Assembly: GCA_045561295.1 (NCBI GenBank)
Contig: JBJKYD010000015.1
Location: 1 to 49,888, forward strand
Reading direction: 5' to 3'
Length of the DNA: 49,888 nucleotides
DNA from: Gammaproteobacteria bacterium
GTDB lineage: Bacteria; Pseudomonadota; Gammaproteobacteria; GCA-002705445; GCA-002716945
Within the stretch, counting starts at the first letter, position 1. Each line of letters starts with the position of its first letter. Shown here piece after piece: positions 1,493 to 30,194 of the stretch. Position numbers and translations under genes: made by a program. The notes below the pieces were generated by a model. It was given only the letters and a program-made list of their open reading frames with translations, ran no database searches and had not been told where the DNA came from.

Positions 1493-2083
1493 CTAGTCAT
1501 CAACAAAATTTAACCAGCCTGTTGCTATGTATTTCTCGCATTTTTCACTAATCTGTCCTCGGTGCGTATGCGTCCAATCAGTGGGCCAAAAAAGCGTTAG
1601 GCCTTTTTTAGCTGGGGAGGTAATTTTTTGATACAGGAACTCTGTCCCGCCATCAGGTACATCATTAAGGTAAGTCATCCAAACTAATATCCTTTTATTG
1701 TTAAAACTTCTCTCACAATGCCATTCTTTATAACCTTGACCAGCTTTATAGTGTTGTATATTCCAGTTACCCGTTAATGTGAAACGTTTCATGCGATTCA
1801 ACATTTTGTATTTATTTTGATATTCAGACAATGCAACGCCAAGAGCGGATATATATTTTGATATAGGCTCACTTCTTTCGTCTGGTGTAAGATGTAAATC
1901 GGTAGACTCTTTGATTTTTGTATCTATAACTGGTCCAGCATTAGTTCCACCAATAGCCCCGGGTTTTGCAGCAAGATGATTATCTTTATAATAATCTACT
2001 AGGTTGTCACATACATTTTCTGAGATGTAAAAACCTCCTATGAAACTTTCAATTGGAAAATTATGATCTTTTAGGTTTGTCAT
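1493..2083 (-). CDS. 2OG-Fe(II) oxygenase, prolyl-4-hydroxylase-like
   Basis: WHCE (HxE), WMTYLNDV..GGTEF, PTDWTHTHRG, KYIATGW. Confidence 0.85.
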   Translation of the reverse strand: MTNLKDHNFPIESFIGGFYISENVCDNLVDYYKDNHLAAKPGAIGGTNAGPVIDTKIKESTDLHLTPDERSEPISKYISALGVALSEYQNKYKMLNRMKRFTLTGNWNIQHYKAGQGYKEWHCERSFNNKRILVWMTYLNDVPDGGTEFLYQKITSPAKKGLTLFWPTDWTHTHRGQISEKCEKYIATGWLNFVDD

Positions 2084-2105
2084 TAATGAAATGCTATAAC
2101 AAATA

Positions 2106-3854
2106 TTACAAGATTCCCATCAAAGTTTGTTCAAGATTATTAGCAAATTTTTTATTATCATGAATCGTTTCAAACTTATTTTTACTAGTCAATTTATTCA
2201 CAATTCTTGACTTGACAGTATCTTCGGAACATATCTCTATGATTTTTTTCTTGTAGCTAATAATATCCTGACAACATAATTCACTTAATCCAAGAGAAAG
2301 AAGCAAACTGGTAGAGACACGAGAAGCGAAATGATTGCCTGTTTTAGTAATTACGGGCAAGCCTACTTGAAGGGCATCGGTCGTAGTTGTATGTCCATTG
2401 TATATGCTAGTATCAATTGCAACATCAGCAAGTTTTAATCTCTGTAAATGTTCTTCTCGTGAAACTTTCTCTGCAAATATCAATCTATCATCTTTAATAT
2501 TATTTTTACGTAAATATTTATATATATTCTTTTCAGCTAATTTATTATCACTTAATAACCAAAGAACTGAATTTGGCAGTTCTTTTAATATTTCAATCCA
2601 ACATTTAAATGTAGAGGCGTCTATCTTAAATGACTGATTAAAACATGCTAAAACAATTGCTTTCTCCGGCAAGAAATGTTTTTCCCTTGATGTATTTGAT
2701 TCAGAAAATTTTGATTCACCACTATTTATTTGATAACAACCCGGCATATATAAAAATTTTTCAGTGTAAAAGCTTTGATGCTCAAGAGGAGTCACAATTT
2801 GATCGGTTAAAATATAATCATAAAATTCATGACCTGAAGTCCCTGGAAATCCTAGATAAGAAATAATTTTTTTTGCTGGTCTAGATTTGATTATATCAAT
2901 TCTATTAGACGCAATAATGATTGATAAGTCTATGAGTACATCTAGATCATGTTCTTTAATGATTTGTGCCGCTGATGCATCAGTAATATCTGTTATATCT
3001 AAAAATTTATATATATCCTTTTTTAATTCTTTTTTAATTTCTTCATCATGTCGAAAAGAAAACAAGAATATTTTAAATTTAGTGGCATCGTGTGATTTAA
3101 ATAGATTTTTTATTAAATGATAAGTTGGATGATTCCTTAATTCTCCACATAGATATCCTATTTTAATTTTTTTATCTTGAGATTCAGATGATTCTATTCC
3201 TCCGCCTATCATTTCGGAATTTGATACCTCTTCTATTTTTTTACAATTTTTCTTTACATATGATTTAGCAATATTATAGTTGATCTCCAGATTATCTGTT
3301 CTACTTATTCCCATGAAGGGGTGCTCTTCTCCATTTCCTACCATGGAATCTAATTTTTTTTCTAGGATATCCATTTCAGACCAATTACATGTATTCTGAT
3401 AAAGGCTATACAGAATGATGAGGGCTTTTTCATTACTCTTATCATGCTTTAGGACAATCTTGGCATGAGTTATTGCACTTTCATAGTCACTATTCCTTTG
3501 GAGAGCTAATGCAGCATTACAGTGTGCATCAATGTAGTTTGAATCTATTGCTATGGCTTTTTTTGAACACGAAATGGCTAAGTCGATATTGTTGCTATCA
3601 AGATAAATTACTGAGAGATTATTATAGGCTTCTTTAGATTCTTCAATTTCAATAGCTTTTTTATAGTAGCTTTCAGCTTGGTCAGGACGTCCTCTGTAAT
3701 TATGTATGTTTCCTATGTTAATAATTAAAGATACCTCATTAGGGAAGATTTTTATTGCATCTAATAGTATGTTAAGCGCCGACTCGAATTTCTCTGATTG
3801 CAAGCAAATCTTAATCTCAGAAATAAATTCTGGTAAAGTCTTTTCGATACCCAT
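2106..3854 (-). CDS. TPR protein with O-GlcNAc transferase (SPINDLY/GT41) domain
   Basis: N-terminal TPRs (EAYNNL, DAHCNAALAL); KIKIGYLCGELRNHP, YLGFPGTSG, FNQSFKI, YNGHTTTTDAL, FASRV. Confidence 0.85.
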   Translation of the reverse strand: MGIEKTLPEFISEIKICLQSEKFESALNILLDAIKIFPNEVSLIINIGNIHNYRGRPDQAESYYKKAIEIEESKEAYNNLSVIYLDSNNIDLAISCSKKAIAIDSNYIDAHCNAALALQRNSDYESAITHAKIVLKHDKSNEKALIILYSLYQNTCNWSEMDILEKKLDSMVGNGEEHPFMGISRTDNLEINYNIAKSYVKKNCKKIEEVSNSEMIGGGIESSESQDKKIKIGYLCGELRNHPTYHLIKNLFKSHDATKFKIFLFSFRHDEEIKKELKKDIYKFLDITDITDASAAQIIKEHDLDVLIDLSIIIASNRIDIIKSRPAKKIISYLGFPGTSGHEFYDYILTDQIVTPLEHQSFYTEKFLYMPGCYQINSGESKFSESNTSREKHFLPEKAIVLACFNQSFKIDASTFKCWIEILKELPNSVLWLLSDNKLAEKNIYKYLRKNNIKDDRLIFAEKVSREEHLQRLKLADVAIDTSIYNGHTTTTDALQVGLPVITKTGNHFASRVSTSLLLSLGLSELCCQDIISYKKKIIEICSEDTVKSRIVNKLTSKNKFETIHDNKKFANNLEQTLMGIL

Positions 3855-3860
3855 GATTTA

Positions 3861-6617
3861 TTAGTGTTTTGTATTCTTAGAAACTTTTACAGCACAGAAT
3901 TTGAATTCTGGTATTTTAGCAAAAGGGTCTAGTGCTGCATTTGTAAGTAAGTTCGCAGCAGATTCAACATAACAAAATGGTATAAAGATTTGCCCTGGTT
4001 GCAGCATGTCATCTCTTCTTGCATAGACATCAATCTTGCCACGTCTGGATTCTACGGTTATGAGATTACCATCAACTATACCGAATTTTTCCATATCCTC
4101 CTGGCACAAATTTGCATTTGGATCGGGTTCGATTTCATGCAACATAGTTGCTCTACGAGTCATTGAGCCCGTATGCCAATGTTCCAATTGTCTTCCAGTA
4201 ATTAAAACAAACGGGTAGGAATCATCGGGAAGTTCTGCTGCATTAATAAGAGGTGATTTTACAAATTTAGCTTTGCCTGTTTCGGTAGGAAAATCGTCTA
4301 TAAATATTACAGGTTGTCCAGGGTCTTTTGAATCATCACATGGGTAAGTAATGGAATGATTCTTTTCAAGCCTATCCCATGTAATCCCTTGTATGCTTGG
4401 CATACAATCAGTCATCTCTTTAAAAATCTCTTTAGGATGTTTATAGTTCCATGTAAGACCCAATCCTCTTGCAATTTGTTGTATAATCCATAAGTCTTGT
4501 TTTGCTTCACCCGGTGGATTAACTGCTTGATTACCTAGCTGAACTCTTCGATCAGTATTTGTAAATGTACCTGTTTTTTCTGGAAAAGCAGATGCTGGAA
4601 GAATAATATCAGCATACATTGCAGTCTCTGTTAAGAAAATATCTTGTACTACAAGATGCTCTAGCTTTGAAAGTGCACTTCTTGCATGATTTAAATCAGG
4701 ATCCGACATTGCAGGATTTTCTCCCATAACATATAGGCCTTTAATTCTTCCTTTAGTAATTTCATACATAATTTCAACGACTGTTAGTCCAGGGTTTGGA
4801 TCAAGTTCAGCATCCCAAAATTTTTCAAAAAAACTATTTATCTCAGGATTATCTACTCTTTGATAGTCCGGGTAAACCATAGGTATTAATCCAGAGTCTG
4901 ACGCCCCTTGGACATTATTTTGTCCCCTTAGAGGATGTAAGCCAGTTCCTGGTCTCCCAACCTGTCCTGTCATAAGAGCTAGTGAAATTAATGCTCTCGC
5001 ATTGTCAGTACCATGAATATGTTGAGATACTCCCATTCCCCAAAAGATAATTGATGCTGACGATGATGCATAAATCTTTGCTACTTCATGAATTGTTTTA
5101 GCATCAATGCCACAAATTGATGCCATCTTTTCAGGAGTAAAATCATTTAAATGTTTTTTCAGATCTTCAAAATCAGTTGTTCTTTCTTCTATAAATTTTT
5201 TATCAATTAAATTTTGATCTATTATTGATTTCATTATGGCATTCAGAAGCGCTACGTCTGTATCAGGTTTAAATTGCAAATAATGAGTTGCGTGTCTAGA
5301 TAAATCATTTTTTCTAGGATCTAAAACTATTAAATTTTTTCCTGCTTTAGCTGCATTTTTTATGAATGTTGCTGCAACAGGATGATTTACTGTAGGATTT
5401 GCCCCGATAACGATGATTGTATCTGCTTCTGCAACATCTGCAACTTGGTTTGAAACAGCACCTGAACCAATCATTTCTAGTAGAGCCACAACAGAAGATG
5501 CATGACATAGTCTTGTACAATGATCTACATTATTATTTTTAAAACCTGTCCTTATTAGTTTTTGAAATAAATAGGCTTCTTCATTTGAACCTTTTGCACA
5601 ACCAAAACCTGCAGTTGATTTTACATCTAGATCAGTAAGTGATTTGAATTTTTCAGTAGTTCTTTCGATAGCATCTTCCCAGGAAATTGGTTCAAAATAA
5701 TCCTCTATTCTGTCTAAATTAAAATCCTCAGGTTGAATATTTTTAGTAACACCTTTTTTTCTAGCAAGAGGAACAGTTAATCTTTGCTCACTATTTACGT
5801 AATTAAATCCATATCTACCTTTTACGCATAGTCTGCTCATATTAGCAGGCCCGTCTCTTCCTTCTGCGAAAAGTATTTTGTCATCTTTGATATTATAAGT
5901 AAGCAAACAGCCCACGCCGCAATATGGACATACGCTATCAACTTTTTTATCAGGGACAACTTTCCCGATTTCTTTAGATGGCATTAGTGCACCTGTTGGG
6001 CAAGCTTGAACACACTCTCCGCAGCCGACACACGTACTAGTTCCCATAGGATCATCCAAATCAAATATAATCTCTGATGCAAGTCCTCTTTGAGCGTATC
6101 CAATGACATCATTTACTTGCTCTTCTCTACAAGCCCTTACGCATCTTGTACATTGTATGCATGCATCTAAATTTACAGCAATTGCAGGATGAGATAAGTC
6201 ATGTTTATTTTGTACTTTAGAGGGGAACCGTGTTTCTTGAACTTGAAGTTTATCTGACCAATGTTTTAGCTCAGAGTTTGGATCATACAGTTCTTTTGAT
6301 ACATCTGATTGAAGTAATTCTATTACGACTTTTTGTGAGTGAATAACTCGGTCATTATGTGTGTTAATAACCATACCATCAGATACTTTTCTAACACATG
6401 AAGGTTGAAGAGCTCTTTCTCCCTCTATCTCTACTACACAGACTCTACAGTTTCCATCAGGCCTCATTCCTTCTTTGTAACAAAGATGCGGAATTTCTAC
6501 TCCAATTCTTTTTGAGACTTCAAGAATTGTCTCATCTGTATTTGCAGAGTATTCCTCTCCATTCAATGTGATGGAACAATTAATATCAAGATTAATATCT
6601 TCAGGTTTTGCCGACAT
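3861..6617 (-). CDS. fdhF: NAD-dependent formate dehydrogenase alpha subunit (Mo/W-bis-MGD, Cys-ligated), Fdh1A-like
   Basis: N-terminal 2Fe-2S and 4Fe-4S motifs (CIQCTRC, CVGCGEC, CPYCGVGC), active site HCTRLCHASS, PLRGQNNVQG, C-terminal PEFKFCAV. Confidence 0.93.
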   Translation of the reverse strand: MSAKPEDINLDINCSITLNGEEYSANTDETILEVSKRIGVEIPHLCYKEGMRPDGNCRVCVVEIEGERALQPSCVRKVSDGMVINTHNDRVIHSQKVVIELLQSDVSKELYDPNSELKHWSDKLQVQETRFPSKVQNKHDLSHPAIAVNLDACIQCTRCVRACREEQVNDVIGYAQRGLASEIIFDLDDPMGTSTCVGCGECVQACPTGALMPSKEIGKVVPDKKVDSVCPYCGVGCLLTYNIKDDKILFAEGRDGPANMSRLCVKGRYGFNYVNSEQRLTVPLARKKGVTKNIQPEDFNLDRIEDYFEPISWEDAIERTTEKFKSLTDLDVKSTAGFGCAKGSNEEAYLFQKLIRTGFKNNNVDHCTRLCHASSVVALLEMIGSGAVSNQVADVAEADTIIVIGANPTVNHPVAATFIKNAAKAGKNLIVLDPRKNDLSRHATHYLQFKPDTDVALLNAIMKSIIDQNLIDKKFIEERTTDFEDLKKHLNDFTPEKMASICGIDAKTIHEVAKIYASSSASIIFWGMGVSQHIHGTDNARALISLALMTGQVGRPGTGLHPLRGQNNVQGASDSGLIPMVYPDYQRVDNPEINSFFEKFWDAELDPNPGLTVVEIMYEITKGRIKGLYVMGENPAMSDPDLNHARSALSKLEHLVVQDIFLTETAMYADIILPASAFPEKTGTFTNTDRRVQLGNQAVNPPGEAKQDLWIIQQIARGLGLTWNYKHPKEIFKEMTDCMPSIQGITWDRLEKNHSITYPCDDSKDPGQPVIFIDDFPTETGKAKFVKSPLINAAELPDDSYPFVLITGRQLEHWHTGSMTRRATMLHEIEPDPNANLCQEDMEKFGIVDGNLITVESRRGKIDVYARRDDMLQPGQIFIPFCYVESAANLLTNAALDPFAKIPEFKFCAVKVSKNTKH

Positions 6618-8280
6618 CTTTTACCTCATTCGAGAAGTATTTTAACACAGATTTTACAGGATTAGATGCTGCTTGACCTAGACCACATATAGAAGCATCC
6701 GACATTGTTTGACTTAAGTCTTCAAGCAGACTTATATTCCATTTTTTTTCTTTCATAAGCTCAGAAGCTTTGGATGTACCAGCTCTGCATGGAGTACATT
6801 TACCACAAGATTCATGTTTGAAAAAATCAATAGTTGTTTTTGCAGCATCCCTTGCTTTATCTTTATCAGATAGTATAACGACTGCGGCTGATCCTATGAA
6901 ACACCCATATTCTTCAAGTGTACCGAAATCTAAAGGGATATCATTCATGCTAGCTGGCAGGATACCGCCCGATGCTCCACCAGGAAAATAACCATAGAAC
7001 TCATGCCCATCTAACATGCCACCTGCATAATCATCTATTAATTCTTGAACTGTGATTCCAGCAGGAGCTAAATGTACGCCAGGTTTTTTTATTCTTCCAC
7101 TAACAGAGAAAGATCTTAGACCTTTTCTACCATTGACGCCTTGATTTGCGAACCAATCGGATCCCTTATCTAATATATCTCTTATCCAAAAAAGAGTTTC
7201 CATATTATGTTCCAATGTTGGTCTTCCAAATAAACCAACTTGTGCAACAAAAGGAGGACGGAGTCGAGGCATCCCTCTTTTGCCTTCTATAGACTCAATC
7301 ATTGCTGATTCTTCACCACATATATATGCACCAGCTCCTCGTCTCATCTCAATTTCTGGAATATCTGTGAAGTGGCTTTTGATTTTATCTATCTCCACTT
7401 CCATAATGTTTTTAACAGCCGGATATTCATCTCTTAAGTAAATATATATTTTATCAATACCTACTACTCTTGATGCTATTAACATGCCTTCAAAAAATCT
7501 ATGAGGATCTGATTCAAGATAGTACCTATCTTTAAAAGTACCTGGTTCACCTTCATCTATATTAATAGCAAGAAGTCTAGGAGCTTCTTGTTCTCTTAGT
7601 ATTCTCCATTTTCTACCAGCGGGAAAACCAGCGCCACCCAGACCTTTAAGTTCTGAGGCTTCAAGAACTTCAACAGCACTTTCATGAGAAATCTTCTCAT
7701 TAATAATTGATTCATAAATTTGATACCCACCATCAGAAATATATTTGTCTAGATCTATATAATCAGGAATCTCTGGATGAAATGCTTTGGCATCAACATT
7801 TTTTTTGATTTCTTTAAAAGTTGCATTATCGACGGGATTAAATTTCACGACAGCTGCTGGCGCAGACTGACATCTACCTATACAGGGAACTTTTTGGATT
7901 CTAACAGTGCCTTTGTAATAATCATCGAGAGTTTTTGCAAGCTCATTAGCACCATTCATTTCACACGTGACTGAGTCGCAAATTCGAACAGTAAGTGAAG
8001 GAGGTTTATCTGAATCAGTGTCTACTACATCAAAGTGATGATAAAAAGTTGCAACTTCATAAACTTCAGTTTGAGAAATACCCATGAGATTGGCTAGTGC
8101 TGTCATATAATTTTTTGTTATTGCACCTTGAGAATCCTGTATTTTATGAAGGTATTCAATCAGGTGATCTCTTCTGTATGAGGAGGTATCGAGGATAGTC
8201 TCAAGTTTACCTAAGACATCAAAATCAACTTTACGACCTCTCGGCCTCAGAGTAATTTTATTCTTGAGTGTTTTTTTCAT
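6601..8280 (-). CDS. Formate dehydrogenase beta subunit, NuoE-NuoF fusion (2Fe-2S + FMN/NADH + 4Fe-4S), Fdh1B-like
   Basis: CDSVTC..CIGRC, LKGLGGAGFP, DEGEPGTFKDR, GAGAYICGEE, ESCGKCTPCR, SICGLG; overlaps the alpha subunit start. Confidence 0.9.
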   Translation of the reverse strand: MKKTLKNKITLRPRGRKVDFDVLGKLETILDTSSYRRDHLIEYLHKIQDSQGAITKNYMTALANLMGISQTEVYEVATFYHHFDVVDTDSDKPPSLTVRICDSVTCEMNGANELAKTLDDYYKGTVRIQKVPCIGRCQSAPAAVVKFNPVDNATFKEIKKNVDAKAFHPEIPDYIDLDKYISDGGYQIYESIINEKISHESAVEVLEASELKGLGGAGFPAGRKWRILREQEAPRLLAINIDEGEPGTFKDRYYLESDPHRFFEGMLIASRVVGIDKIYIYLRDEYPAVKNIMEVEIDKIKSHFTDIPEIEMRRGAGAYICGEESAMIESIEGKRGMPRLRPPFVAQVGLFGRPTLEHNMETLFWIRDILDKGSDWFANQGVNGRKGLRSFSVSGRIKKPGVHLAPAGITVQELIDDYAGGMLDGHEFYGYFPGGASGGILPASMNDIPLDFGTLEEYGCFIGSAAVVILSDKDKARDAAKTTIDFFKHESCGKCTPCRAGTSKASELMKEKKWNISLLEDLSQTMSDASICGLGQAASNPVKSVLKYFSNEVKDVGKT

Positions 8281-8376: not shown

Positions 8377-8748
8377 ATGAGCCAAGAAAAAGTATATTCA
8401 GAAGATGAGATTAATAGCTACTTATCAAATAAATTACCCCATTGGTTTTATGAAAACGGATGGATAAGAAGAAAGTATAAAACTAGTGGATGGAAAGGAA
8501 CACTCATGGTGGTGAATACTGTCGGACATTTAGCAGAAGCAGCATGGCATCATCCTGACATTGCTGCATCATATGGTTTTGCAATAGTAAAACTTCAAAA
8601 TCATGCCGCTAAAGGTATTACTGATAAAGATTTTTTACTAGCTGAGAAAATAGAATCAGTTATTCAATGGCAGCCGTCCAAAGAGGACAACACTCTTGAG
8701 GGCACTCCAGATGATCCAAGATTCAAATATGTCAAATATGATGAGTAA
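8377..8748 (+). CDS. Pterin-4-alpha-carbinolamine dehydratase family protein
   Basis: AEAAWHHPD, H..KGITDKD; GGAG RBS. Confidence 0.88.
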   Translation: MSQEKVYSEDEINSYLSNKLPHWFYENGWIRRKYKTSGWKGTLMVVNTVGHLAEAAWHHPDIAASYGFAIVKLQNHAAKGITDKDFLLAEKIESVIQWQPSKEDNTLEGTPDDPRFKYVKYDE

Positions 8749-8751
8749 GTT

Positions 8752-9336
8752 TTAGAGAAATTTTTTTACAATTCTTGTTATTTCTGTACTTGGTATTCCA
8801 TTAGGTATAATTTTTTTTACTTGAAGCTTTTTATCAAGTACATAAATATTAGAACTGTGTTCAACTATATATCCTTTATTTTTTTGATCTGCAAATTCAT
8901 ATTTAGTTTTAAAAAATTTTGTTAAGGTATCAATATTTTCTTTATTAGAGGTTAACGCAGCGATCCTATTATCAAAAAAATCTACATATTCACGGACTTT
9001 TTTATAATCATCTCTGTCATAATCTACGCTTATGAACATAGGTAATACTTGGCTAGACTCATCGCCTAAACCTTTCATTACCCTTGCCATATCTAATACT
9101 GTAGTAGGGCAAACATCTGGGCAATGAGTATATCCAAAAAAAACTAAAAGAACTTTATTTTCATAACCATTAAATTTTGTAATTTCATTATTTTTATCGT
9201 AGAAACTTACTTTTTCAAACACACTAGACATGTCAGGAAATGCTTTTGAGATATCTGAATACGATTTAGTTGGACTTATAATCATTAGGAATAAAAGTCC
9301 CAGAAAAGCAATCTTGAATCTATGAAATATTTGCAT
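8752..9336 (-). CDS. SCO1/SenC copper chaperone
   Basis: FFGYTHCPDVCP, conserved His in YIVEHSS, N-terminal signal/anchor. Confidence 0.9.
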   Translation of the reverse strand: MQIFHRFKIAFLGLLFLMIISPTKSYSDISKAFPDMSSVFEKVSFYDKNNEITKFNGYENKVLLVFFGYTHCPDVCPTTVLDMARVMKGLGDESSQVLPMFISVDYDRDDYKKVREYVDFFDNRIAALTSNKENIDTLTKFFKTKYEFADQKNKGYIVEHSSNIYVLDKKLQVKKIIPNGIPSTEITRIVKKFL

Positions 9337-9585: not shown

Positions 9586-10818
9586 ATGATCGGACAAATA
9601 CTTTTAAACACACGTTACCTACTTGCACCAATACTAATTATAGTAGCCGGTGCTGGTGTCTTACTAGGCGGTATTATGGCTTGGTTAGGCGTTGTATTAC
9701 TTTTTGTAGGTCTACTAGTAGACATCGCTACAAAATTTGAAACAACAGGCGTTGGGTATGATGAAAACGGTGAAAGTCTTGGATGGCCTACATTCCAAAA
9801 CTTAACAATGTATTTCATGTTACCTATATTCGTACTATTCCAATTAGTAATGGCATGGAGACTTTATACATTCATGGCACTAGGCGGAGCAGAAGGCGCG
9901 GTAGTAATGGAATTAATTCCAGGCATTCTAGTAATGCACGAAGGAATTACAGCTGTTAACTTAATCGGTGCTACATTATCATCAGGTATCTTTATAGGTA
10001 TCGGTATTATTTACGGACATGAATTATCACATACCAAAGGTTTTGGTTTTGTAATTTCACGTTTGATGATGGCATTATCAGGTTCAGCACATTTCTGCTA
10101 TGCACACGTTTACAACCATCACCTAGAACTTGCTAGTGAAGATGATCCTGCAACTGCACCTCGCGGTCGTACAATTTATGGTCATTACCCACTATCATAT
10201 CTAGGACAATCTAAATTCTTATACAACATGGAAAAAGAAAGACTTTCAAGAATGGGAGTTTCATTCATTTCATGGCAAAACCGTTGGATTCGTGGTTATT
10301 TAATGGCAGTACCTACAGTAGCACTATTCTTTATGGCTGGTGGCTGGATAGGTATGGCTGTATTAGCTACAGTCTGGGGAATTTCAAACTTCGAATTAGA
10401 AGCATTGAACTACTTAGAGCACTACGGTTTAATACGTGTAAAAGATCAACCTATTGATTATCGCCATAACTGGGATAACTCAACATGTTTCACAGCATGG
10501 TTCTTCATCGAAATTGGTCGTCAAGCTGACCACCATGATCGTGGAGAAACACATTTCTGGGAACTTGAAAACGTAGGTTGCCCTAATACAGGTTGGGGAT
10601 ACTTTGTAGTATTCTTCATCGCACTTGTACCGCCAATATGGCACTGGTATATGCGTAAAAGATTAGCTGCATGGGATACTCATTTTGCTACAGACGAAGA
10701 AAAAGCGATTGCTGCAAGAATCAACAAAGAAGTTGGTTACGAAGGCACACCTTTCTCAGGCGATGTATTACAAGATGCTGGTAACGTTGACCTTGGCTTA
10801 AGATCAGCTAAGAAGTAA
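9586..10818 (+). CDS. Membrane-bound non-heme di-iron monooxygenase, XylM/CymAa/AlkB family (substrate unknown)
   Basis: His boxes HELSH, HVYNHH, NYLEHYG and RQADHH; DDPATAPRG; XylM-like C-terminus PPIWH..RLAAWD.HFAT..E; several TM segments. Start moved to ATG 9586, which follows a GGAGG RBS (410 aa). Confidence 0.9.
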   Translation: MIGQILLNTRYLLAPILIIVAGAGVLLGGIMAWLGVVLLFVGLLVDIATKFETTGVGYDENGESLGWPTFQNLTMYFMLPIFVLFQLVMAWRLYTFMALGGAEGAVVMELIPGILVMHEGITAVNLIGATLSSGIFIGIGIIYGHELSHTKGFGFVISRLMMALSGSAHFCYAHVYNHHLELASEDDPATAPRGRTIYGHYPLSYLGQSKFLYNMEKERLSRMGVSFISWQNRWIRGYLMAVPTVALFFMAGGWIGMAVLATVWGISNFELEALNYLEHYGLIRVKDQPIDYRHNWDNSTCFTAWFFIEIGRQADHHDRGETHFWELENVGCPNTGWGYFVVFFIALVPPIWHWYMRKRLAAWDTHFATDEEKAIAARINKEVGYEGTPFSGDVLQDAGNVDLGLRSAKK

Positions 10819-10948: not shown

Positions 10949-11128
10949 ATGAAAGTAACTTATAATGCAGACGTTTGCACACACGCTGGGGAATGCGTAA
11001 AAGGTGCACCAAATGTATTCAAAGTGGTAGATGGTCAGTTTGTAATTGACACAGCTGCTGATAGTGAAGAAAATATAAGAGCAACTGTAGGTAACTGCCC
11101 GTCAGGCGCACTTGTAATCGAAGAGTAA
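10949..11128 (+). CDS. Small divergent 4Fe-4S/3Fe-4S mono-cluster ferredoxin (Fer4_19/YjdI-like), 59 aa; absent from the ORF track
   Basis: GGAG RBS; MKVTYNADVCTHAGECVKGAPNVFKVVDGQFVIDTAADSEENIRATVGNCPSGALVIEE*, with CxHxxxC...CPSGAL. Confidence 0.85.
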   Translation: MKVTYNADVCTHAGECVKGAPNVFKVVDGQFVIDTAADSEENIRATVGNCPSGALVIEE

Positions 11129-11165: not shown

Positions 11166-11817
11166 ATGCCAATTGGAGATCACTTAAGAGACGTTATGGA
11201 CCTCTATGGAAGTCCAAAATGTCCTCACACAAATGCAGTGCTTATAGCTGCAGGTGAAAAAGGAGTTGATATCAACTCTCACGTAGAAGATGACTGGGGT
11301 CCTAGTTCATCAATCAGAAGCATGAGTCCACTAGGCATTGGACCGGTCCTTAAAGATCGTACAGCAGTAAACGTTGGTCTTAGTAGCATGTATGTCTTAT
11401 CTTGACGATAAAGGATTTGGACCATCACTAGTTCATAGAAATGGTGTAACCAGAGCAAGAATGTTCCAAGAGATCACTATAGCTCAACAAACTGATTGTT
11501 CCGATGATGCTGCATTAGCTGCTGCATTAGATCAATTAGAGGCTACACTAAATTCACCACTTGGAAACATGAAAGGTGACTATTGTGTAGGTCAATACAC
11601 ATTAGCTGATTGTGCTTGGGCAGGTGTATGTCAAGTTGCAACAAACATGGGCAAAGGCACTGCTGTAAGCTCACGTTCTGCTGTCAATACTTGGTTCGCT
11701 GCTGTTCAGTCACATCCATCAACAAGTAAAGAAGCTATCAACCCATTTAGCTGTCTATCTACTAAAGCTGATCATGATGCAAATAGTATGCGTGACGTAA
11801 GAATTAATACTGCTTAA
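11166..11817 (+). CDS. Glutathione S-transferase family protein (about 216 aa), split by one extra base near 11379-11381
   Basis: N-terminal part LYGSPKCPH..IAAGEKGV..SPLGIGPVLKD and C-terminal part MSYLDD..RARM..LDQLEATL..YCVGQYTLADCAW join into one GST if a single base is removed. Confidence 0.8.
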
Positions 11818-11941: not shown

Positions 11942-13042
11942 ATGAATATTTATAAATACTTATGGTTTTTTGGAACTAAACCACAAGATAGCGAAGCAAG
12001 ACTATTACCATCTGGTAAAAACTTAGAAGTCTCTCGCGATGAAACACTTTTGAATGCAGCTCTAGAGCAGGGTCTAGATTGGCCTCACAATTGTAAATTT
12101 GGATCTTGCGGTGAATGCAAGTGTCGTTTAGTTAAAGGTAAAATTAAACCCATGGTTGACTTTAGTGAAGCGCTCACAAAACAAGAATTAGCAGAGGATT
12201 ATATTCTTGCATGCCAATCACGGCTAACAATGGATTGTGATATTGAAGTAGAGTTGGGCGATCTCATTAGAGTTCCTGCTAGAACTTGTAATGCAAAAGT
12301 AAAAGCTACTGAAATGCTAACATCAGATATCATGTCTTTAACAATTGGCACTGATAGTGATATCCCTGAAGGTAAAGACAGACCAGGATTAGCAGGTATG
12401 TGGGCTGAACTATCTATACCAGGACTTGAACGTCCTAGATCATACTCATTTGCTAGCGCACCTCAAAATGAAAATAAAAATGAATTTACTTTTTTCATTA
12501 GGAAAGTACCAGGCGGCAAGTTTACCGAATGGCTCTTCAGTGATGACAGAGATCCTGATGAATGTGTCACTATAAATGGCCCATTCGGCACATTTTATTT
12601 AAGAGAAAAAGAAACTCCAATCGTGTGCATTGCAGGCGGTAGTGGATTAGCACCAATAAAAGCAATTTTAGAGGGTGGTGTTAACGATCAAATCAAAAGA
12701 GATGTTATTTTTCTATTTGGAGCGCGCACGCAAGCAGACTTATATTCATTAAAAGAGATAGAAGATATTAAAAATAATTGGAATAAGGACTCATCTTTTC
12801 AATTTATACCTGTTCTTAACATGGAACCAGAAGATAGTGATTGGAAAGGCGCAAGAGGAATGGTTACGGATTACTTTGAGCAAGAAGTAATTCCAAAACA
12901 AAATTTAGATATCAACGGGTGGCAAGCATATTTATGTGGACCTCCTCCGATGGTAGATGCTGCTGGTGTATGTCTCACTAAAAATGGTATTTCTGAAGAT
13001 GAAATCTTCTATGATAAGTTTACAGATTCTAGTAATTTGTAA
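11942..13042 (+). CDS. 2Fe-2S ferredoxin-FAD/NAD(P)H reductase, XylA/CymAb-type monooxygenase electron transfer component
   Basis: WPHNCKFGSCGECKC..LACQ, RSYSFAS, GGKFT, GPFG.FYLR, IAGGSGLAP, YLCGPPPM, FYDKF. Confidence 0.92.
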   Translation: MNIYKYLWFFGTKPQDSEARLLPSGKNLEVSRDETLLNAALEQGLDWPHNCKFGSCGECKCRLVKGKIKPMVDFSEALTKQELAEDYILACQSRLTMDCDIEVELGDLIRVPARTCNAKVKATEMLTSDIMSLTIGTDSDIPEGKDRPGLAGMWAELSIPGLERPRSYSFASAPQNENKNEFTFFIRKVPGGKFTEWLFSDDRDPDECVTINGPFGTFYLREKETPIVCIAGGSGLAPIKAILEGGVNDQIKRDVIFLFGARTQADLYSLKEIEDIKNNWNKDSSFQFIPVLNMEPEDSDWKGARGMVTDYFEQEVIPKQNLDINGWQAYLCGPPPMVDAAGVCLTKNGISEDEIFYDKFTDSSNL

Positions 13043-13172: not shown

Positions 13173-13445
13173 ATGGGATTTCTATTCGGTAAGACAGCTC
13201 AAGGCACTTATGTCGTTGTAGCTTTCTGGATAGCGTGTTACTACTTCTTCAGCAGCATGTTCCCAATGTGGCACTTTGCACCAGGTTCAAACCCTGGACT
13301 TGCTGGGTGGCCTGTAGCATTACTTATTGGTACACTGTTAATTGTAGCTAATATGATAAGTGTTTATCTTTTCATAAAAGTTGCAGGTAACAGACCATGG
13401 GAATGGTTTGAAGATGGAGTCTACGGACCAGGAGACGAAGGGTAG
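13173..13445 (+). CDS. Small hypothetical membrane protein (2 predicted TM helices)
   Basis: Strong AGGAG RBS, two hydrophobic stretches, acidic Trp-rich tail RPWEWFEDG. Confidence 0.7.
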   Translation: MGFLFGKTAQGTYVVVAFWIACYYFFSSMFPMWHFAPGSNPGLAGWPVALLIGTLLIVANMISVYLFIKVAGNRPWEWFEDGVYGPGDEG

Positions 13446-13584
13446 AAGAATTGCAACGGAAGTTGTGATACTTTAGGAGTCTTAATACAAGGATTTTACG
13501 GGGGAAAGCTTAATTGATTTCAATACTGGACGTATGTCCCCAGCCATAAGACGTTATATATATATATAAATGAGGAAAAGTTAT

Positions 13585-15156
13585 ATGAAAACTTTAAAAA
13601 ATGATTGGAAGCTAGGAGCTGCCGTCGGGACAGCGCTGTCTCTTGGCTCTGCTGGCGCAATCGCAGGACCACACGGGTTCGATCTTCATAACGTGTTAAA
13701 TGGAGCATCAGCATCATTCGCTGGTACATCTATTGCACATACAGAAGATCCAGTATCCGCAGTGTTTGGTAACCCTGCAACGCTTGCACAATATTTCGGT
13801 GGTACTAACTTTATGTTTGGTGCTACTTTCTACATGCCACGTGCGCAAATGCGTCATGATGGTTCAGCTGGTTATGCTGTTACTAGAGGTAATAGTCTAA
13901 AGCTTGTAGTCAATGGCTCTGGTGTAACAAATGGTGATAATCCAGCGACTGCCTCAACTGAGACAGACGGCGGAGCTTCGCCAGGTGATACTGTAGATCA
14001 ATACTACGGTTTTGACTCAAGATCTGCACAAGATCTTTACGCTGTACCACAAGTTGCAGTAACACAAGATTTATCAGGTCTTGGTATACCTGTTGTACTT
14101 GGTGTTGGTGTAACAGCTACTAATGGTATTGGTGTTGATTATCAACACACATCAAACGCTATTGGTGCAGCAGCTGAACTTATTAATTTAGGTGTAAACG
14201 CTGGTATCGGTATGAAAATGTCTGACACATTAGACGTTGGTGTAGCTTTAACAATTACTTATGCAATGCTTGAAGCAGGAGTTACAGGCTCTAGCACACA
14301 AAAGCATGACTTAGGTTTTAGAGGTACAATCGGTGCGCGTAAGCATATGGGCCCAATGACTATTGGTATGTATTACCAAGGTGAACTTGAGCATCAATAT
14401 GCAAACTTACACGTAACAAGTAATCATGGAAGTACTCCATTTGATGAGCAGGATGGTGATTCAGATAGAGTAATCGCTGCCTCTGTACAAAACTTGCATG
14501 CAAGTGTGACTTGTAACGGTGATAACGGCACTGTATGTAGACAAGACTTGAAAGTACAACAACCTTGGAACATAGGTTTAGGTATGTCTATGGATATGGG
14601 TAATGGCATGTTAGTAATGGCTGACTTTACACATAAAGCATGGTCTGACGCTCATTTCTTTAATGAGTTCTACGATGATCAAAATGTTGTATCTATAGGT
14701 ATTCAAAAAACTATGGGTAACTTGAAGCTTCGTGCAGGATACGGATATGCAGATGATCCACTACTCAGCCAAGTTCAAGAGGGCGTTGAAGTTAAAACCA
14801 TTGGTGGTATAGATGTTCATGGTAATGCTTATACATCTCCAATGTACGGAATATTTATGTCTTACTTCCAAGCTATGGAAACACCTGTAATCTACAAGCA
14901 TAGATTAGCTGTAGGTCTTGGTGTTGAAAGCTTCTTGGGTGTTCCATTTTTATCATTGGACGCGCATGCAGCTGTTCAGCTTGAAGAAGATAAGTGTTTT
15001 GGTTCTGGTCAAACAGGATACTCAGGTGGCACAGGAGCTGCTGGCGGTACCGCACTTGGTGGTGGTCTAGCTGATGCTGGATGTACTGCATCTGATCACT
15101 CCAAAGCAACAGTTTCATCATTCCATATGGGTGGTGCTTTAACTTGGGCATTCTAA
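13585..15156 (+). CDS. FadL/TodX/XylN-family outer-membrane channel for hydrophobic compounds
   Basis: Signal peptide; GASASFAGTSIA..DPVSAVFGNPATL; LRAGYGY; amphipathic beta strands; C-terminal Phe. Start moved to ATG 13585, which follows GAGGA. Confidence 0.85.
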   Translation: MKTLKNDWKLGAAVGTALSLGSAGAIAGPHGFDLHNVLNGASASFAGTSIAHTEDPVSAVFGNPATLAQYFGGTNFMFGATFYMPRAQMRHDGSAGYAVTRGNSLKLVVNGSGVTNGDNPATASTETDGGASPGDTVDQYYGFDSRSAQDLYAVPQVAVTQDLSGLGIPVVLGVGVTATNGIGVDYQHTSNAIGAAAELINLGVNAGIGMKMSDTLDVGVALTITYAMLEAGVTGSSTQKHDLGFRGTIGARKHMGPMTIGMYYQGELEHQYANLHVTSNHGSTPFDEQDGDSDRVIAASVQNLHASVTCNGDNGTVCRQDLKVQQPWNIGLGMSMDMGNGMLVMADFTHKAWSDAHFFNEFYDDQNVVSIGIQKTMGNLKLRAGYGYADDPLLSQVQEGVEVKTIGGIDVHGNAYTSPMYGIFMSYFQAMETPVIYKHRLAVGLGVESFLGVPFLSLDAHAAVQLEEDKCFGSGQTGYSGGTGAAGGTALGGGLADAGCTASDHSKATVSSFHMGGALTWAF

Positions 15157-15267: not shown

Positions 15268-16629
15268 ATGAAAAAACTTATATCAACTTTATATGGTATG
15301 TTGATGTCAGCTTTTCTTGCAGTAGCACTTGTACCAACACAAGCATTCTCAGATGAGACATGCATGTCACCATACATGGCTAAAATCGTAGGCCAAGAGG
15401 ACTACGTATATGTATGGACATTAGGTCAAGTGGGCGTAGGAGATGAACAGGATAAATTGGTAACTATAGCAGTTAATCCAAATTCTCCACACTACGGCAA
15501 TGTAATTGGACACGTTTCTGTCGGTGGACGTAATGAAGCTCATCATTCTGGTTTTACAGATGATAGACATTACCTCTGGGCAGCAACACTAGATACCAGT
15601 AAAATTTTCATTTTTGATGTTCATACAAATCCTAACAAACCAAAACTTCATAAAGTTATTACTAACTTTGTAAAAGCTTCTGGTGGAATTGTAGGACCTC
15701 ATACAACATATGCACTACCAGGAAGAATGATGATTTCTGGTCTTTCTAACAACCAAGACTTTGGTGGTAGAACAGCACTTGTTGAATATACAAATGATGG
15801 TACATATGTAGCTACATATCACATGCCACATGATGAAAACCTTTATGGTGCTACTAAAACAGGACAAATAGCTGATGGATACGGATATGATGTTCGTGCA
15901 TTACCACGTCGTAATGTTATGATCACATCTTCATTCACAGGTTGGAATAACTACATGATGAACTTAGGTAAACTCATGGGTGACTCTGATGCTATGAAAC
16001 GTTTTGGTAACACAGTAGTAGTATGGGATTTACATTCACGTAAACCTAAAAAAGTATTTGACGTACCAGGTGCACCGCTTGAAATTAGATGTGCATGGGG
16101 TTCACAAAATAACTACTGCTTCACTACAACAGCATTGACTTCACAAATCTGGTTGATTTATGAAAAAGATGGCGAGTGGCACACTGAATCTGTAGGAACT
16201 ATTGGTGATCCTGCAAAAATTCCACTACCTGTAGACATCTCTATTACAGCTGATGATCAACATTTATGGGTAAATACATGGAATGATGGCATGACAAGAG
16301 TATTTGATATTTCAAATCCTCACATGGCAAAAGAAGTGTACACACACAAAATTGGTGACCAAGTAAACATGCTATCTCAAAGCTGGGATGGAAAACGTGT
16401 ATACTTTACATCATCACTATTAGCTAACTGGGACAAAGCAGACGGACCAGAAAAAATGCCTCAGTTCTTCAAAGCATATCATTACAAAGATGGCAAATTG
16501 GAATTCCAATTCGCTCTTGATTTTGCTAAAGAAAAACTTGGTATGCCTCATCAAATGAGATTTGGTGCATATTCTTTATATGCTAAATCTCCAAAAGATG
16601 GAGCTAAAGTCGCAGAACTTTCTAAGTAA
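15268..16629 (+). CDS. mtoX: Methanethiol oxidase (SBP56/SELENBP1 family), periplasmic
   Basis: Signal peptide ending AFS followed by DETCMSPY; GRNEAHH, GPHT, GYGYD; SSFTGW and LLANWD carry the candidate TTQ tryptophans; followed by SCO-MauG as in known mto clusters. Confidence 0.93.
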   Translation: MKKLISTLYGMLMSAFLAVALVPTQAFSDETCMSPYMAKIVGQEDYVYVWTLGQVGVGDEQDKLVTIAVNPNSPHYGNVIGHVSVGGRNEAHHSGFTDDRHYLWAATLDTSKIFIFDVHTNPNKPKLHKVITNFVKASGGIVGPHTTYALPGRMMISGLSNNQDFGGRTALVEYTNDGTYVATYHMPHDENLYGATKTGQIADGYGYDVRALPRRNVMITSSFTGWNNYMMNLGKLMGDSDAMKRFGNTVVVWDLHSRKPKKVFDVPGAPLEIRCAWGSQNNYCFTTTALTSQIWLIYEKDGEWHTESVGTIGDPAKIPLPVDISITADDQHLWVNTWNDGMTRVFDISNPHMAKEVYTHKIGDQVNMLSQSWDGKRVYFTSSLLANWDKADGPEKMPQFFKAYHYKDGKLEFQFALDFAKEKLGMPHQMRFGAYSLYAKSPKDGAKVAELSK

Positions 16630-16778: not shown

Positions 16779-18770
16779 ATGTTAAGGAAGATAATATTTA
16801 TATGTATGTTACCTGTCGCTATCATGGCGCAGGAGTTGACGTACGACAATAAGGCACTAGCGCCAGGTTGGACCAATCTAACATTTACACCCCCAAGCGC
16901 ATCGTCCTATACATTGGCCAGCTTCTCACCTGCAAAAGATGGCGATGTAATTAATCAAAGAGAAGAAAATACTTCACTTCACGATATATATGATGACAAA
17001 GTTACATTGCTTAACTTTATGTACACCACTTGTACAGATATAAATGGTTGTCCATTAGCCACAGCAGTTTTTCATAAAATTCAACAAAAATTATCTAAAG
17101 ACCCAGCTATTGGCAAACAAGTCAATCTGGTAAGCCTTAGTTTTGATCCTAAAAATGATACACCAGAAATTATGAAACTTTATGGAGCAGGTACCGAGAG
17201 ACACCTCGTAGATTGGCAGTTTTTAACAACACAAAATGCAGATATCCTTGATCCAATACTTGATGGTTACCAACAAAGAATTATAAAAGAATATGATAGT
17301 GAAGGTAATTATATTGGTTCAATTTCCCATATTCTTAGAGTTTTTTTAATCGATAAAGATAAACAAGTTAGAAATATTTATAGCGTTTCTTTTCTTCATG
17401 CAGATTTAATCATTAATGATATAAAAACACTACTTGATCCAAATACTAATAATGGCACTTTGATTGCTGCAGCTGATACAAATTCAAATTCTAAATTAGA
17501 CGCTGTTAAATCTGAGACATCAAAGCTATCAAAACCAGGTGATAATAAAGATGGTTATTATGACAGTGATTATGAGAGTGCAAGTAAAAGTTTACACAGA
17601 ACTGGAAAACCTGCAGATTTATATACAATTGCCACAACTAAGCAACTTGGACTACCAAAGCTTAAGCTGCCTGAAGGGACAAATCTTACACCTGAAAAAA
17701 TTGATTTAGGTAGAAAATTATTTTTTGATAGAAGGCTGTCTCATACAGATACAATATCTTGTGCTATATGTCATGTACCAGAAATGGGCTTTGCACAAAA
17801 TGAATTAGCAACTGCTGTAGGCACTGAGGGAAGGTCTGTCCCAAGAAATGCTCCTACTGTTGTGAACGCCGCCTATTTATCTAGGTTCTTCCATGATGCG
17901 AGAGAAAATTCTCTTGAAGATCAAGTATGGGGACCTTTGCTAGCTCACAATGAAATGGCGAATCCGTCGCCCGGATATATTCTAAATAAAATTAAAAATA
18001 TACCTGATTACGAAGGCTTGTTTGAAACTGCATATGGTGGATCAGTAAATATGGATTCCTTATCCAGAGCACTTGCTGCCTACCAATACAGTCTGCTCAG
18101 CGGTAATTCACCATTTGATAAGTGGTACTATAATAACGAATCAAGCGCAATTTCTAAATCTGCTAAGCGAGGCTTTGAAATCTTTAAAGGTAAGGGCAAT
18201 TGTATGGCATGTCATTTAGTAAACGATGAATATGCATTATTTACAGATGAGAAACTTCATAATACTGGAATAGGATTTAAATCTTCTATGTATGTTGAAC
18301 CTCCGCGCAAAAAAGTAGTATTAGCACCAGGCATAGAGGTCGATGTTGACACGTCTGTCTATGCGAATGACTCAAGATTTAAAAACGAAATTAAACCTAA
18401 TGACTTAGGTCTTTATTTAATTACTCAAGATCCTGGTGATCGTTGGAAAATAAGGACACCATCATTGAGAAATGTTGAATTATCAGGTCCTTATATGCAC
18501 AACGGTCAATTAGCTACATTAAAAGACGTTGTTGATTTCTACAATGAAGGCGGCGTAAGAGAAGTTGGTAAGATGAAAAATGAAACCATTAGTCCTCTTA
18601 TGATGCCTCTCAACTTGAGTAAACAAGAAGTGGATGATGTAGTAGAGTTTCTTAAAACGCTAACTGGTTCAAACATGGACACACTAGTTATGGATGCTTT
18701 TGCGGCCCCAATAGGGGAAGTATCACTGCAGGACCCAAACTGGTTTCATGATAATAAACTGAAATATTAA
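16779..18770 (+). CDS. SCO/SenC domain fused to a MauG-like di-heme cytochrome c peroxidase (MtoX maturation)
   Basis: FMYTTCTDINGCP plus ISH (SCO); CAICH and CMACH heme motifs, LGRKLFFDRRLS, RNAPT, TPSLRNV..GPYMHNG. Confidence 0.9.
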   Translation: MLRKIIFICMLPVAIMAQELTYDNKALAPGWTNLTFTPPSASSYTLASFSPAKDGDVINQREENTSLHDIYDDKVTLLNFMYTTCTDINGCPLATAVFHKIQQKLSKDPAIGKQVNLVSLSFDPKNDTPEIMKLYGAGTERHLVDWQFLTTQNADILDPILDGYQQRIIKEYDSEGNYIGSISHILRVFLIDKDKQVRNIYSVSFLHADLIINDIKTLLDPNTNNGTLIAAADTNSNSKLDAVKSETSKLSKPGDNKDGYYDSDYESASKSLHRTGKPADLYTIATTKQLGLPKLKLPEGTNLTPEKIDLGRKLFFDRRLSHTDTISCAICHVPEMGFAQNELATAVGTEGRSVPRNAPTVVNAAYLSRFFHDARENSLEDQVWGPLLAHNEMANPSPGYILNKIKNIPDYEGLFETAYGGSVNMDSLSRALAAYQYSLLSGNSPFDKWYYNNESSAISKSAKRGFEIFKGKGNCMACHLVNDEYALFTDEKLHNTGIGFKSSMYVEPPRKKVVLAPGIEVDVDTSVYANDSRFKNEIKPNDLGLYLITQDPGDRWKIRTPSLRNVELSGPYMHNGQLATLKDVVDFYNEGGVREVGKMKNETISPLMMPLNLSKQEVDDVVEFLKTLTGSNMDTLVMDAFAAPIGEVSLQDPNWFHDNKLKY

Positions 18771-19351
18771 TGATGAAGAAATATTTTATTATATTTCTTG
18801 TCATTTTCCTGATAACACCTATACATCAAGCCCAGTCAGAAAAATATCCTCTCCCTACAAAAATGCTTATGGACCCAATGCCAGCTGCAGATATGGCACC
18901 AGAGATAAATGTTATTGACATGAATGGTGAAAAAAGAACTTTACAAGACTTAAAAGGTAAATTTGTTTTAGTTAATTTCTGGGCAACTTGGTGTAACCCA
19001 TGTAAAGTTGAGATGCCATTATTAGAGAACCTTCATCAAACACTTAAAAGTGATAAATTCACAGTTCTTGGTCTTCATGTTGGCCCAGGACCAGAAAACA
19101 TAGAAGAATTTAAAAAACTCATGCCAATATCTTTCCCAATATATGTCGATATGGAATTAGAGGTTAATTGGGGAGTTCCAGGCCTGCCTACAACCTTCCT
19201 TTTAAATCCAGAGGGAAGATTAATATACAGAGCAGTAGGTAAAAGAGAGTTTGCATCGGACGACATGATCAACTTCATAAGAAATCAAATTGAAGGCTAT
19301 AAGTTCGCTCAAAAATATGAAGGCAAGCTTGTGCCTCCTATGATGAGGTAA
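18770..19351 (+). CDS. TlpA/ResA-family thiol-disulfide oxidoreductase
   Basis: VNFWATWCNPCKVEMP, GLPTTFL. Confidence 0.9.
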   Translation: MMKKYFIIFLVIFLITPIHQAQSEKYPLPTKMLMDPMPAADMAPEINVIDMNGEKRTLQDLKGKFVLVNFWATWCNPCKVEMPLLENLHQTLKSDKFTVLGLHVGPGPENIEEFKKLMPISFPIYVDMELEVNWGVPGLPTTFLLNPEGRLIYRAVGKREFASDDMINFIRNQIEGYKFAQKYEGKLVPPMMR

Positions 19352-23949: not shown

Positions 23950-24011
23950 AAATTATTTTACATCAATAATAAATAACTTTACATGCAAAAACATTAATAT
24001 ATTCTATTTTA

Positions 24012-24953: not shown

Positions 24954-24962
24954 GAGATTTTC

Positions 24963-28731: not shown

Positions 28732-28746
28732 ATATTGAAATGTAAT

Positions 28747-29622: not shown

Positions 29623-29664
29623 GCTACGTTCGTTTATTAATAAACATAAATATAGGAGATAATA

Positions 29665-30177: not shown

Positions 30178-30194
30178 TCATATCTGATTATGTT

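Follow-up and report, generated by a model that had tools for sequence, protein, structure and literature searches.

Can one of the nine histidines that hold the iron pair of an AlkB-type membrane monooxygenase be given up, and what kind of enzyme results when it is? Published work describes the nine AlkB histidines as unvarying from species to species, and GPo1 AlkB as unable to do without them (PMC10110569). The question is raised by a gene at positions 9586-10818 (plus strand) of a 49,888-nucleotide stretch of gammaproteobacterial DNA (assembly GCA_045561295.1, contig JBJKYD010000015.1), the whole of which is called the window here. The gene, which likely begins with the ATG at 9586 with GGAGG lying 8 bases upstream, encodes a 410-amino-acid alkB/xylM-like membrane di-iron monooxygenase, referred to as P0001. 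In its third histidine box, at 10522-10536 and in frame with the open reading frame, the sequence CAA GCT GAC CAC CAT specifies QADHH (Q313, H316 and H317) within the longer motif EIGRQADHH, the codon for Gln313 being CAA at 10522-10524. A reading made earlier from the letters of the window, the sequence-only reading, had noted this box and had held the other motifs to be intact, and rereading the sequence bears it out: box 1 is HELSH (10018-10032; H145 and H149, in invariant alignment columns), box 2 is HVYNHH (10105-10122; H174, H178 and H179, with N177 specific to the clade described below), and the NYLEHYG motif occupies residues 275-281 (10408-10428; E278 and H279). Set against the conserved nine-histidine pattern of HELxH, HxxxHH, NYxEHYG and HxxHH, P0001 thus has eight of the nine, with Gln313 as the exception, and keeps the Glu next to the Fe2 ligand in NYxEHYG. 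The answer has two parts: the Gln defines a subfamily of its own, and the gene content around it suggests, at something close to an even chance, that P0001 is a XylM-type methyl hydroxylase for dimethylsulfide (DMS) that feeds methanethiol oxidase (MtoX) and a one-carbon (C1) pathway.

The relatives of P0001 place the Gln at a position that is otherwise His. Its sole Pfam match is FA_desaturase (PF00487; 4.4e-27, 95.9 bits against a cut-off of 29.7), and no NCBIfam model matches it at E<=0.01. A HMMER search of all PDB sequences returned only the chains of AlkB from Fontimonas thermophila (FtAlkB), 8sbb (6e-29) and 8f6t (5.5e-26), and in both alignments RQADHH of P0001 is set on RHSDHH. XylM of plasmid pWW0 aligns by BLASTP at 27% identity (6e-38) over residues 10-385, and there the third box is set on NHINHH. 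The statements that AlkB has RHSDHH and that XylM also has HxxHH at this place are thus correct for both solved FtAlkB chains and for pWW0 XylM.

The close homologues show that selection has kept the Gln fixed throughout one gammaproteobacterial subfamily, which is monophyletic and stands on a long branch. The best 120 matches in a collection of 5.8 billion metagenomic proteins (66-97% identity), taken with the query as a set of 121, read QxDHH in 118 cases and His at this position in none (0/121); the three exceptions are all singleton cluster representatives, namely P0108 with QADNN, in which the Gln is kept, P0003, from which the box is deleted, and P0104, a chimeric sequence that stops short of the box. 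When genomes were scanned, one for each species, 229 loci were confirmed, and in the 80 that were taken as the genomic set all 81 homologues (61-100% identity) carry Gln, as IGRQxDHH, with one reading QAXHH. The Gln codon is CAA in 53 of them and CAG in 28, the latter confined to more distant members; since both codons are used, the amino acid is maintained while the codon drifts. The most distant members read, from genomes G012 and G351 (54-55% identity), have the same FIEIGRQADHHD, and a paralogue on another contig of the window's own genome (72% identity) also reads RQADHH. Among the 40 differences listed, out of 202, for four marine sequencing runs (RNA libraries in three cases, DNA in one), none falls at 10522-10536.

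The alignment of homologues that the sequence-only reading had called for thus finds the Gln conserved across the clade and no close homologue with His. Assembly quality does leave an opening for putting the Gln down to faulty base calling, to a mutation private to this assembly or to a gene in decay, since a neighbouring GST-like gene carries a frameshift private to the window and the assembly is therefore not flawless. The hydroxylase frame, however, runs uninterrupted over its full length, Gln is present in every homologue in which the region is preserved and in the paralogue of the same genome, and the odd representatives P0003, P0104 and P0108 are singletons of which none has His, so that this explanation is excluded, with a vanishingly small probability left to it. 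The paralogue itself (G000:C13:51715-52881; locus L003 9710-10903) is solitary, lying between genes unrelated to it and having neither a reductase gene nor mtoX in its vicinity. Two Gln-box copies are carried by each of the two sampled genomes of the source family, and the source genome measures about 1.03 Mb.

The Gln is confined to one clade. A HMMER search over 1.84 billion cluster representatives gave 2248 matches, of which the best 150 were inspected; among these, identity drops abruptly from at least 55% (one full-length clade representative and fragments) to 38% or less. An alignment of 133 rows was assembled from the query, the full-length representatives (at least 300 amino acids) and nine locus homologues, all exclusive of XylM. 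At its column 313, Gln is found in 12 of the 12 clade members and His in all 121 of the out-of-clade full-length representatives from the best 150 of 2248 matches, so the Gln is not scattered among ordinary hydroxylases in this set. In a quick maximum-likelihood tree of the same rows a branch with SH-aLRT support of 100 sets the 12 Gln proteins apart from the rest, and since the 12 form one clade a single change explains the trait. The stem of the clade, with 0.90 changes per site, is the longest inner branch of the tree, the median being 0.09. Further residues, fixed among clade members, are seldom met elsewhere: T150, Y172, N177 (within box 2), L182, R195, E309 (which precedes Q313 by four residues) and G336. 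In a phylum-level sample searched at E<=1e-90, members of the clade were found in 2 of 401 genomes, the window's own and one of the same class, with none outside the class among the genomes searched. Alignment and tree together support the view that the Gln proteins constitute a distinct subfamily, as had been proposed from the single sequence; it is best read as a new one of XylM type, and EIGRQxDHH is usable as its diagnostic motif in the material examined.

What the Gln does to the metal site can be approached through FtAlkB, in which, according to the structural account in PMC10113152, Fe1 is bound by His137, 141, 167, 172 and 314, and Fe2 by His171, 272, 311 and 315 together with Glu271. 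The sequence-only reading's statement that iron is bound by the His with which the third box opens agrees with the place of His311 on Fe2 in this account. By motif order, Gln313 replaces His311, which in FtAlkB binds Fe2 together with three other His, and the Fe2 set of P0001 is predicted to consist of H178, H279, H317, E278 and Gln313. An AlphaFold2 model of P0001, metal-free and built on a 70-sequence alignment, has a pLDDT of 93. Compared with the PDB by Foldseek at E<=0.001, it matches 8f6t (9.6e-16) and 8sbb (5.9e-13) only, with a TM score of 0.74, and no desaturase structure is among the top 50 matches listed; since the sole significant matches are AlkB, the fold is AlkB-like, and the comparison with the AlkB cryo-EM structures that had been suggested earlier comes out accordingly. 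In such a site Fe2 would be held by three His and Glu278, and Gln313 would bind it through the amide oxygen or hold a water or hydroxo ligand. The Fe2 site would thereby become more labile and richer in oxygen, in line with a proposal made for front-end desaturases, whose third box does take the form QxxHH, again as the earlier reading had stated (PMC4550275). An altered di-iron coordination by Gln313 is likely by this analogy.

A function for the altered enzyme is suggested by the genes that follow it. By family assignment, the locus is a XylM/XylA/XylN-like module set in an island for methanethiol, formaldehyde and formate oxidation. The XylA-like reductase gene (11942-13042, plus strand) combines an N-terminal plant-type 2Fe-2S ferredoxin domain with FAD- and NAD-binding domains (Pfam Fer2, FAD_binding_6 and NAD_binding_1); its product matches that of the gene behind xylM on pWW0 at 38% identity over 351 residues (7e-82) and stays below the cut-off of each of the BenC, AntC and MmoC models. 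An outer-membrane beta-barrel weakly like XylN, FadL and TodX (13570-15156, plus strand; OMP_b-brl, 6e-4) has 22% identity to the outer-membrane transport protein of pWW0 (E 3e-4), and its homologue in genome G312 (32% identity) gives a Toluene_X match (2e-13). Next comes the gene for MtoX (15268-16629, plus strand), which scores 708.9 bits against the NCBIfam equivalog NF052453 (cut-off 650) and also matches Pfam SBP56. It is followed by a fusion of SCO1/SenC and MauG domains assigned to MtoX maturation (16779-18770, plus strand; Pfam SCO1-SenC and CCP_MauG), the same fusion that is described for Methylophaga thiooxydans (PMC5739008). The formyltransferase/hydrolase complex of the tetrahydromethanopterin (H4MPT) pathway is encoded by fhcC-fhcD-fhcA-fhcB (19357-23949, minus strand; TIGR03122, TIGR03119, TIGR03121 and TIGR03129), and mch, a gene for an MptN-like ligase, an open reading frame without a family match and fae (29665-30177) occupy 26894-30177 on the plus strand (TIGR03120, NF040720 and TIGR03126). 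An NAD-linked formate dehydrogenase, with an alpha and a NuoE/F-like subunit, lies at 3861-8280 on the minus strand (TIGR01591, 757 bits; nuoF and nuoE families).

In the reaction scheme that these genes suggest, electrons would pass from NAD(P)H to the reductase and on to the hydroxylase, possibly by way of a small iron-sulfur protein encoded directly behind it. The hydroxylase would oxidise one methyl group of DMS, and the resulting hemithioacetal would split into methanethiol and formaldehyde. The methanethiol would then be oxidised by MtoX, and the formaldehyde by the products of the Fae, H4MPT and Fhc genes and by the formate dehydrogenase of the same island.

The small iron-sulfur protein, of 59 amino acids (10949-11128, plus strand) and absent from the listed open reading frames, is a Fer4_19 protein with a divergent 4Fe-4S mono-cluster domain (Pfam PF06902, 6.8e-17). 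Its gene occurs in 32 of the 80 related loci, Methylophaga records included, C10, H12, C16 and C50 are invariant in 24 sequences, and it may be an AlkG-like electron carrier, a part that XylMA lacks. Behind it lies the GST-like gene (11166-11817, plus strand; weak GST_N and GST_C Pfam matches), split by its frameshift into 11166-11405 and 11374-11817 in two frames. Because six relatives, one of them with a 100% identical hydroxylase, have the gene unbroken (about 216 amino acids), and one base is missing at 11379 or 11382 in contigs of other marine runs, the likely cause of the break is a fault of assembly or a lesion private to the strain. Between reductase and barrel lies a gene for a predicted membrane protein of 90 amino acids (13173-13445, plus strand) with 87-100% identity in orthologous loci, which makes it as conserved as the hydroxylase and far more so than the reductase (65-100%); it may be an unrecognised subunit. 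Behind the SCO1-MauG fusion is a gene for a TlpA/ResA-like thiol-disulfide oxidoreductase (18770-19351, plus strand; Pfam and NCBIfam), and on the opposite flank of the hydroxylase gene, divergent from it, one for a SCO1/SenC copper chaperone (8752-9336, minus strand; Pfam, 2.3e-35), present in 19 of 19 orthologue loci. A pterin-4a-carbinolamine dehydratase gene (8377-8748) stands between formate dehydrogenase and SCO1 and keeps that place in orthologous loci (76-98% identity). Beside the formate dehydrogenase are two open reading frames of 196 and 582 amino acids (1493-3854, minus strand) with no NCBIfam match at E<=1e-10, and the C1 island (3861-8280 and 19357-34163) also holds a beta-RFAP synthase gene, further genes like those for H4MPT and methanofuran cofactors, and pabB.

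How general the association with mtoX is was followed in the 80 loci, divided into group A (orthologues, at least 85% identity), group B (the second paralogue, 68-85%) and group C (below 68%, with records from Methylophaga, Porisulfidus, Oxydemutatoraceae, Thiothrix and others). Neighbours were counted within 10 kb, and loci with 7 kb on both sides were taken as full-flank. In group A, all nine full-flank loci (9/9) have the reductase, GST-like protein, barrel, MtoX, SCO1-MauG fusion, SCO1 and formate dehydrogenase; in group C the reductase is present in 20, the GST-like gene in 17 and the barrel in 10 of 35 full-flank loci. Hydroxylase and mtoX lie at most 20 kb apart in four families with differing gene orders: G145 and G312 have them 17.6 kb apart, and the distance is 1.3-4.6 kb in family f1, in G012 and in G351. 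The order in G012 is hydroxylase, truncated globin, reductase, mtoX and SCO1-MauG fusion; in this genome of a distant family the truncated bacterial globin gene (L084 9142-9504) lies between hydroxylase and reductase, in the stretch immediately upstream of mtoX.

Published expression data bear on the same gene set. In the comparison by Kroeber and Schaefer of M. thiooxydans cultures with DMS or methanol as growth substrate, the two mtoX genes and the SCO1/MauG fusions were induced by DMS (PMC6548844). In their published values, M. thiooxydans genes that share the annotations of the module are 50- to 136-fold up on DMS: Table S6 gives a fatty acid desaturase domain protein, 226 (MDMS009_226), at 1359 on DMS and 10 on methanol, an oxidoreductase with NAD-binding domain, 61 (MDMS009_61), at 618 and 12, and a membrane protein for aromatic hydrocarbon degradation, 906 (MDMS009_906), at 1469 and 18, and it further gives Sco1/SenC, 140, at 454 and 12, and glbN, 199, at 601 and 21 (PMC6548844). 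By annotation, this DMS-induced set corresponds to the parts of the module, including the globin of G012. The enzyme itself is a gap in the literature: the M. thiooxydans genome is described as holding no known DMS-degrading gene (PMC6548844), and in the account of a 2026 review DmoA is the sole enzyme named for the conversion of DMS to methanethiol (PMC13360808). Full-text literature searches found no paper that assigns a DMS role to an AlkB/XylM-like enzyme. The window's own genome, 92% complete, gave no match to PF00296, the luciferase-like family to which DmoA belongs.

Oxidation of DMS by P0001 must be set against a number of observations that count the other way. In group B none of the seven group A neighbours (reductase, GST-like protein, barrel, MtoX, SCO1-MauG fusion, SCO1 and formate dehydrogenase) was found in 11 full-flank loci (0/11), and in group C MtoX lies within 10 kb in 0 of 35. 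An mtoX gene at a distance of no more than 10 kb is thus rejected as a trait shared by the whole clade, with 0/46 full-flank loci outside group A, and because the Gln is fixed in groups A, B and C it is a property of the clade and not of mtoX linkage. The question put earlier, whether the Gln tracks with mtoX linkage, therefore has a divided answer: it does not by adjacency (9/9 against 0/46, with Gln fixed throughout), and it does through strong co-occurrence of clade and MtoX within genomes, a point in favour of the DMS reading. In an even sample of 401 Gammaproteobacteria genomes, 16 have a clade member (at least 56% identity) and 31 have MtoX, and MtoX is present in 14 of the 16 clade genomes, and in 9 of 11 families, as against 17 of the other 385, counts in which related genomes are not independent and in which clade membership was read from the motif in 6 of the 16 genomes and taken from identity of at least 56% in the other 10. 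Two clade genomes, G099 (80% complete) and G348 (97%), give no MtoX match, and 17 genomes have MtoX without the clade, among them G141, which is flagged unpublished. Of the residues that mark the clade, E309 is not unique, Glu being present also in 4 of the 121 representatives and in XylM, and the altered coordination of Fe2 is argued by analogy throughout. In M. thiooxydans, MDMS009_226 is tied to the Gln clade by its annotation and by the gene set and strand pattern in G312 only, and in an exact-sequence cluster look-up homologues from G312, an uncultured Methylophaga and G012 carry just generic names. Earlier work is cited there as having found no DMS monooxygenase activity in DMS-grown cells, with a methyltransferase proposed instead, and the authors themselves take the induction of the desaturase as a membrane-lipid response to H2O2 (PMC6548844). 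The missing activity counts against the DMS reading, although an enzyme seated in the membrane and dependent on a reductase of its own might escape an assay designed for soluble enzymes.

Among the alternatives, the one that stands next in rank is another small sulfur or C1-linked substrate, with the Gln tuning the iron site for that chemistry. The candidates are S-oxygenation of DMS to dimethyl sulfoxide (DMSO), oxidation of dimethyl disulfide or of other methylthio compounds, and a formaldehyde-yielding demethylation of another methylated volatile. Co-occurrence with MtoX, the C1 island and a FadL/TodX-like channel fit such substrates equally well and none of them identifies the substrate, and the conserved GST-like gene, which has no obvious role in the hydroxylation of DMS, may indicate a thiol-conjugated reactive intermediate. 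AlkB-type enzymes can, moreover, sulfoxidise thioethers. Formation of DMSO, however, would not explain either the linkage to MtoX or formaldehyde oxidation, and the induction in M. thiooxydans was seen with DMS as the growth substrate, which leaves this alternative unlikely. Less probable again is an ordinary hydroxylase of short alkanes or methyl-aromatics, in which the Gln is tolerated and the mtoX neighbourhood is coincidental or part of an island for volatiles. The source records do name members of the clade alkane 1-monooxygenase, the fold and motifs are those of AlkB and XylM, and an XylA-like reductase with an XylN/TodX-like channel makes up parts of a xylene system. Yet family and translation scans of the neighbouring open reading frames of the window gave no xylB/xylC-like alcohol or aldehyde dehydrogenase, both of which pWW0 has, and two copies in a host genome of about 1.03 Mb suggest a core function. 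The co-occurrence with MtoX and the linkage in four families with differing gene orders also speak against coincidence, and a ligand called invariant and indispensable in AlkB has here given way to Gln in all members, which between them use both of its codons.

The explanation that the authors of the M. thiooxydans study offered for their gene, a membrane-lipid desaturase or hydroxylase that answers the H2O2 stress of methanethiol oxidation (PMC6548844), would make QxxHH a sign of chemistry like that of front-end desaturases, and it has in its favour both the Pfam assignment to FA_desaturase and the QXXHH form of the third box in those enzymes. It appears quite improbable for P0001, which has no cytochrome b5 domain, shares the HxxxHH form of box 2 and NYxEHYG with AlkB and XylM, and finds AlkB only among Foldseek matches at E<=0.001, with no desaturase in the top 50 listed; a dedicated XylA-like reductase and an outer-membrane channel fit uptake and oxidation, not lipid remodelling. 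Hydroxylation of DMS therefore ranks ahead of another sulfur or C1 substrate, which is followed by a hydrocarbon hydroxylase and then by a lipid enzyme. In its fullest form, which is tentative and falls somewhat short of an even chance, the preferred reading makes the Gln-box subfamily the O2-dependent DMS monooxygenase that has been missing for Methylophaga and for marine Gammaproteobacteria of high abundance and tiny genome, with Fe2 rebuilt from three His, Glu and Gln for thioether chemistry.

The abundance of the subfamily can be seen in environmental data. A 3.7-kb stretch of the locus is present in 20 marine runs from 12 studies, six of the runs being RNA libraries, and 2784 and 1042 sequences fall into single 90%-identity clusters of the subfamily. 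Three marine RNA libraries, from three studies, have contigs that cover the hydroxylase gene, a point in favour of the proposal that does not by itself prove transcription. Over the hydroxylase the contig depth in the RNA libraries is in the hundreds or thousands, and over the reductase in the tens or below, but such depth cannot rank genes. The nine-histidine site has been treated as invariant in AlkB-type enzymes, a rule that the Gln subfamily breaks, and so abundant a subfamily amounts to a natural experiment on the workings of an unusual, unbridged iron pair. It also supplies a testable candidate for the enzyme that starts DMS degradation in Methylophaga and related bacteria. Should that candidate prove right, EIGRQxDHH would allow DMS consumption to be traced in metagenomes and metatranscriptomes, and would point to a major marine DMS sink that has so far gone uncounted.

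Comparison with known systems shows where the new subfamily stands. With DmoA of Hyphomicrobium sulfonivorans, which depends on reduced flavin mononucleotide (FMNH2), P0001 has the proposed reaction alone in common, DmoA being of an unrelated, luciferase-like protein family and P0001 matching FA_desaturase only. The front-end (delta-4/5/6/8) desaturases share with it the superfamily PF00487 and the Gln at the first position of the third box, and are described as having an N-terminal cytochrome b5 domain with HPGG, a second box HXXHH and a third box QXXHH (PMC4550275). P0001, unlike these enzymes, gives no Cyt-b5 Pfam match, has no HPGG and carries HxxxHH as box 2, and because the desaturases have cytochrome b5 and HXXHH the shared Gln looks convergent. 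In front-end desaturases a change of this Gln to His is reported to cost the enzyme its activity.

AlkB and XylM are closer. AlkB of Fontimonas thermophila (8F6T and 8SBB) resembles P0001 in its fold, in the order of the four motifs and in the Glu of NYxEHYG, and differs in having nine His ligands where P0001 has eight and Gln313; the sequence match between the two is limited to residues of about 119-360, whereas that with XylM is near full length. AlkB uses rubredoxin. This locus has the XylA-like reductase and the Fer4_19 protein, and Pfam scans of the neighbours, made without a search directed at rubredoxin, turned up Fer2 and Fer4_19 instead. XylM of pWW0 (NC_003350.1) is like P0001 in its near full-length alignment, in the Ala before box 2 and in the Glu four residues before box 3, and unlike it in having NHINHH in place of QADHH and NYFQHYG in place of NYLEHYG; at 27% identity, and with no NCBIfam model matched, P0001 does not qualify as an XylM orthologue. 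The pWW0 cluster has alcohol and aldehyde dehydrogenase genes beside xylM, of which there is none among the open reading frames scanned in the window. What the locus shares with XylMA is an adjacent XylA-type reductase, a fusion of ferredoxin and FNR domains, and an outer-membrane transport protein in the cluster; what it has in addition are the Fer4_19 and GST-like genes and, as its neighbours, MtoX and the genes of C1 oxidation.

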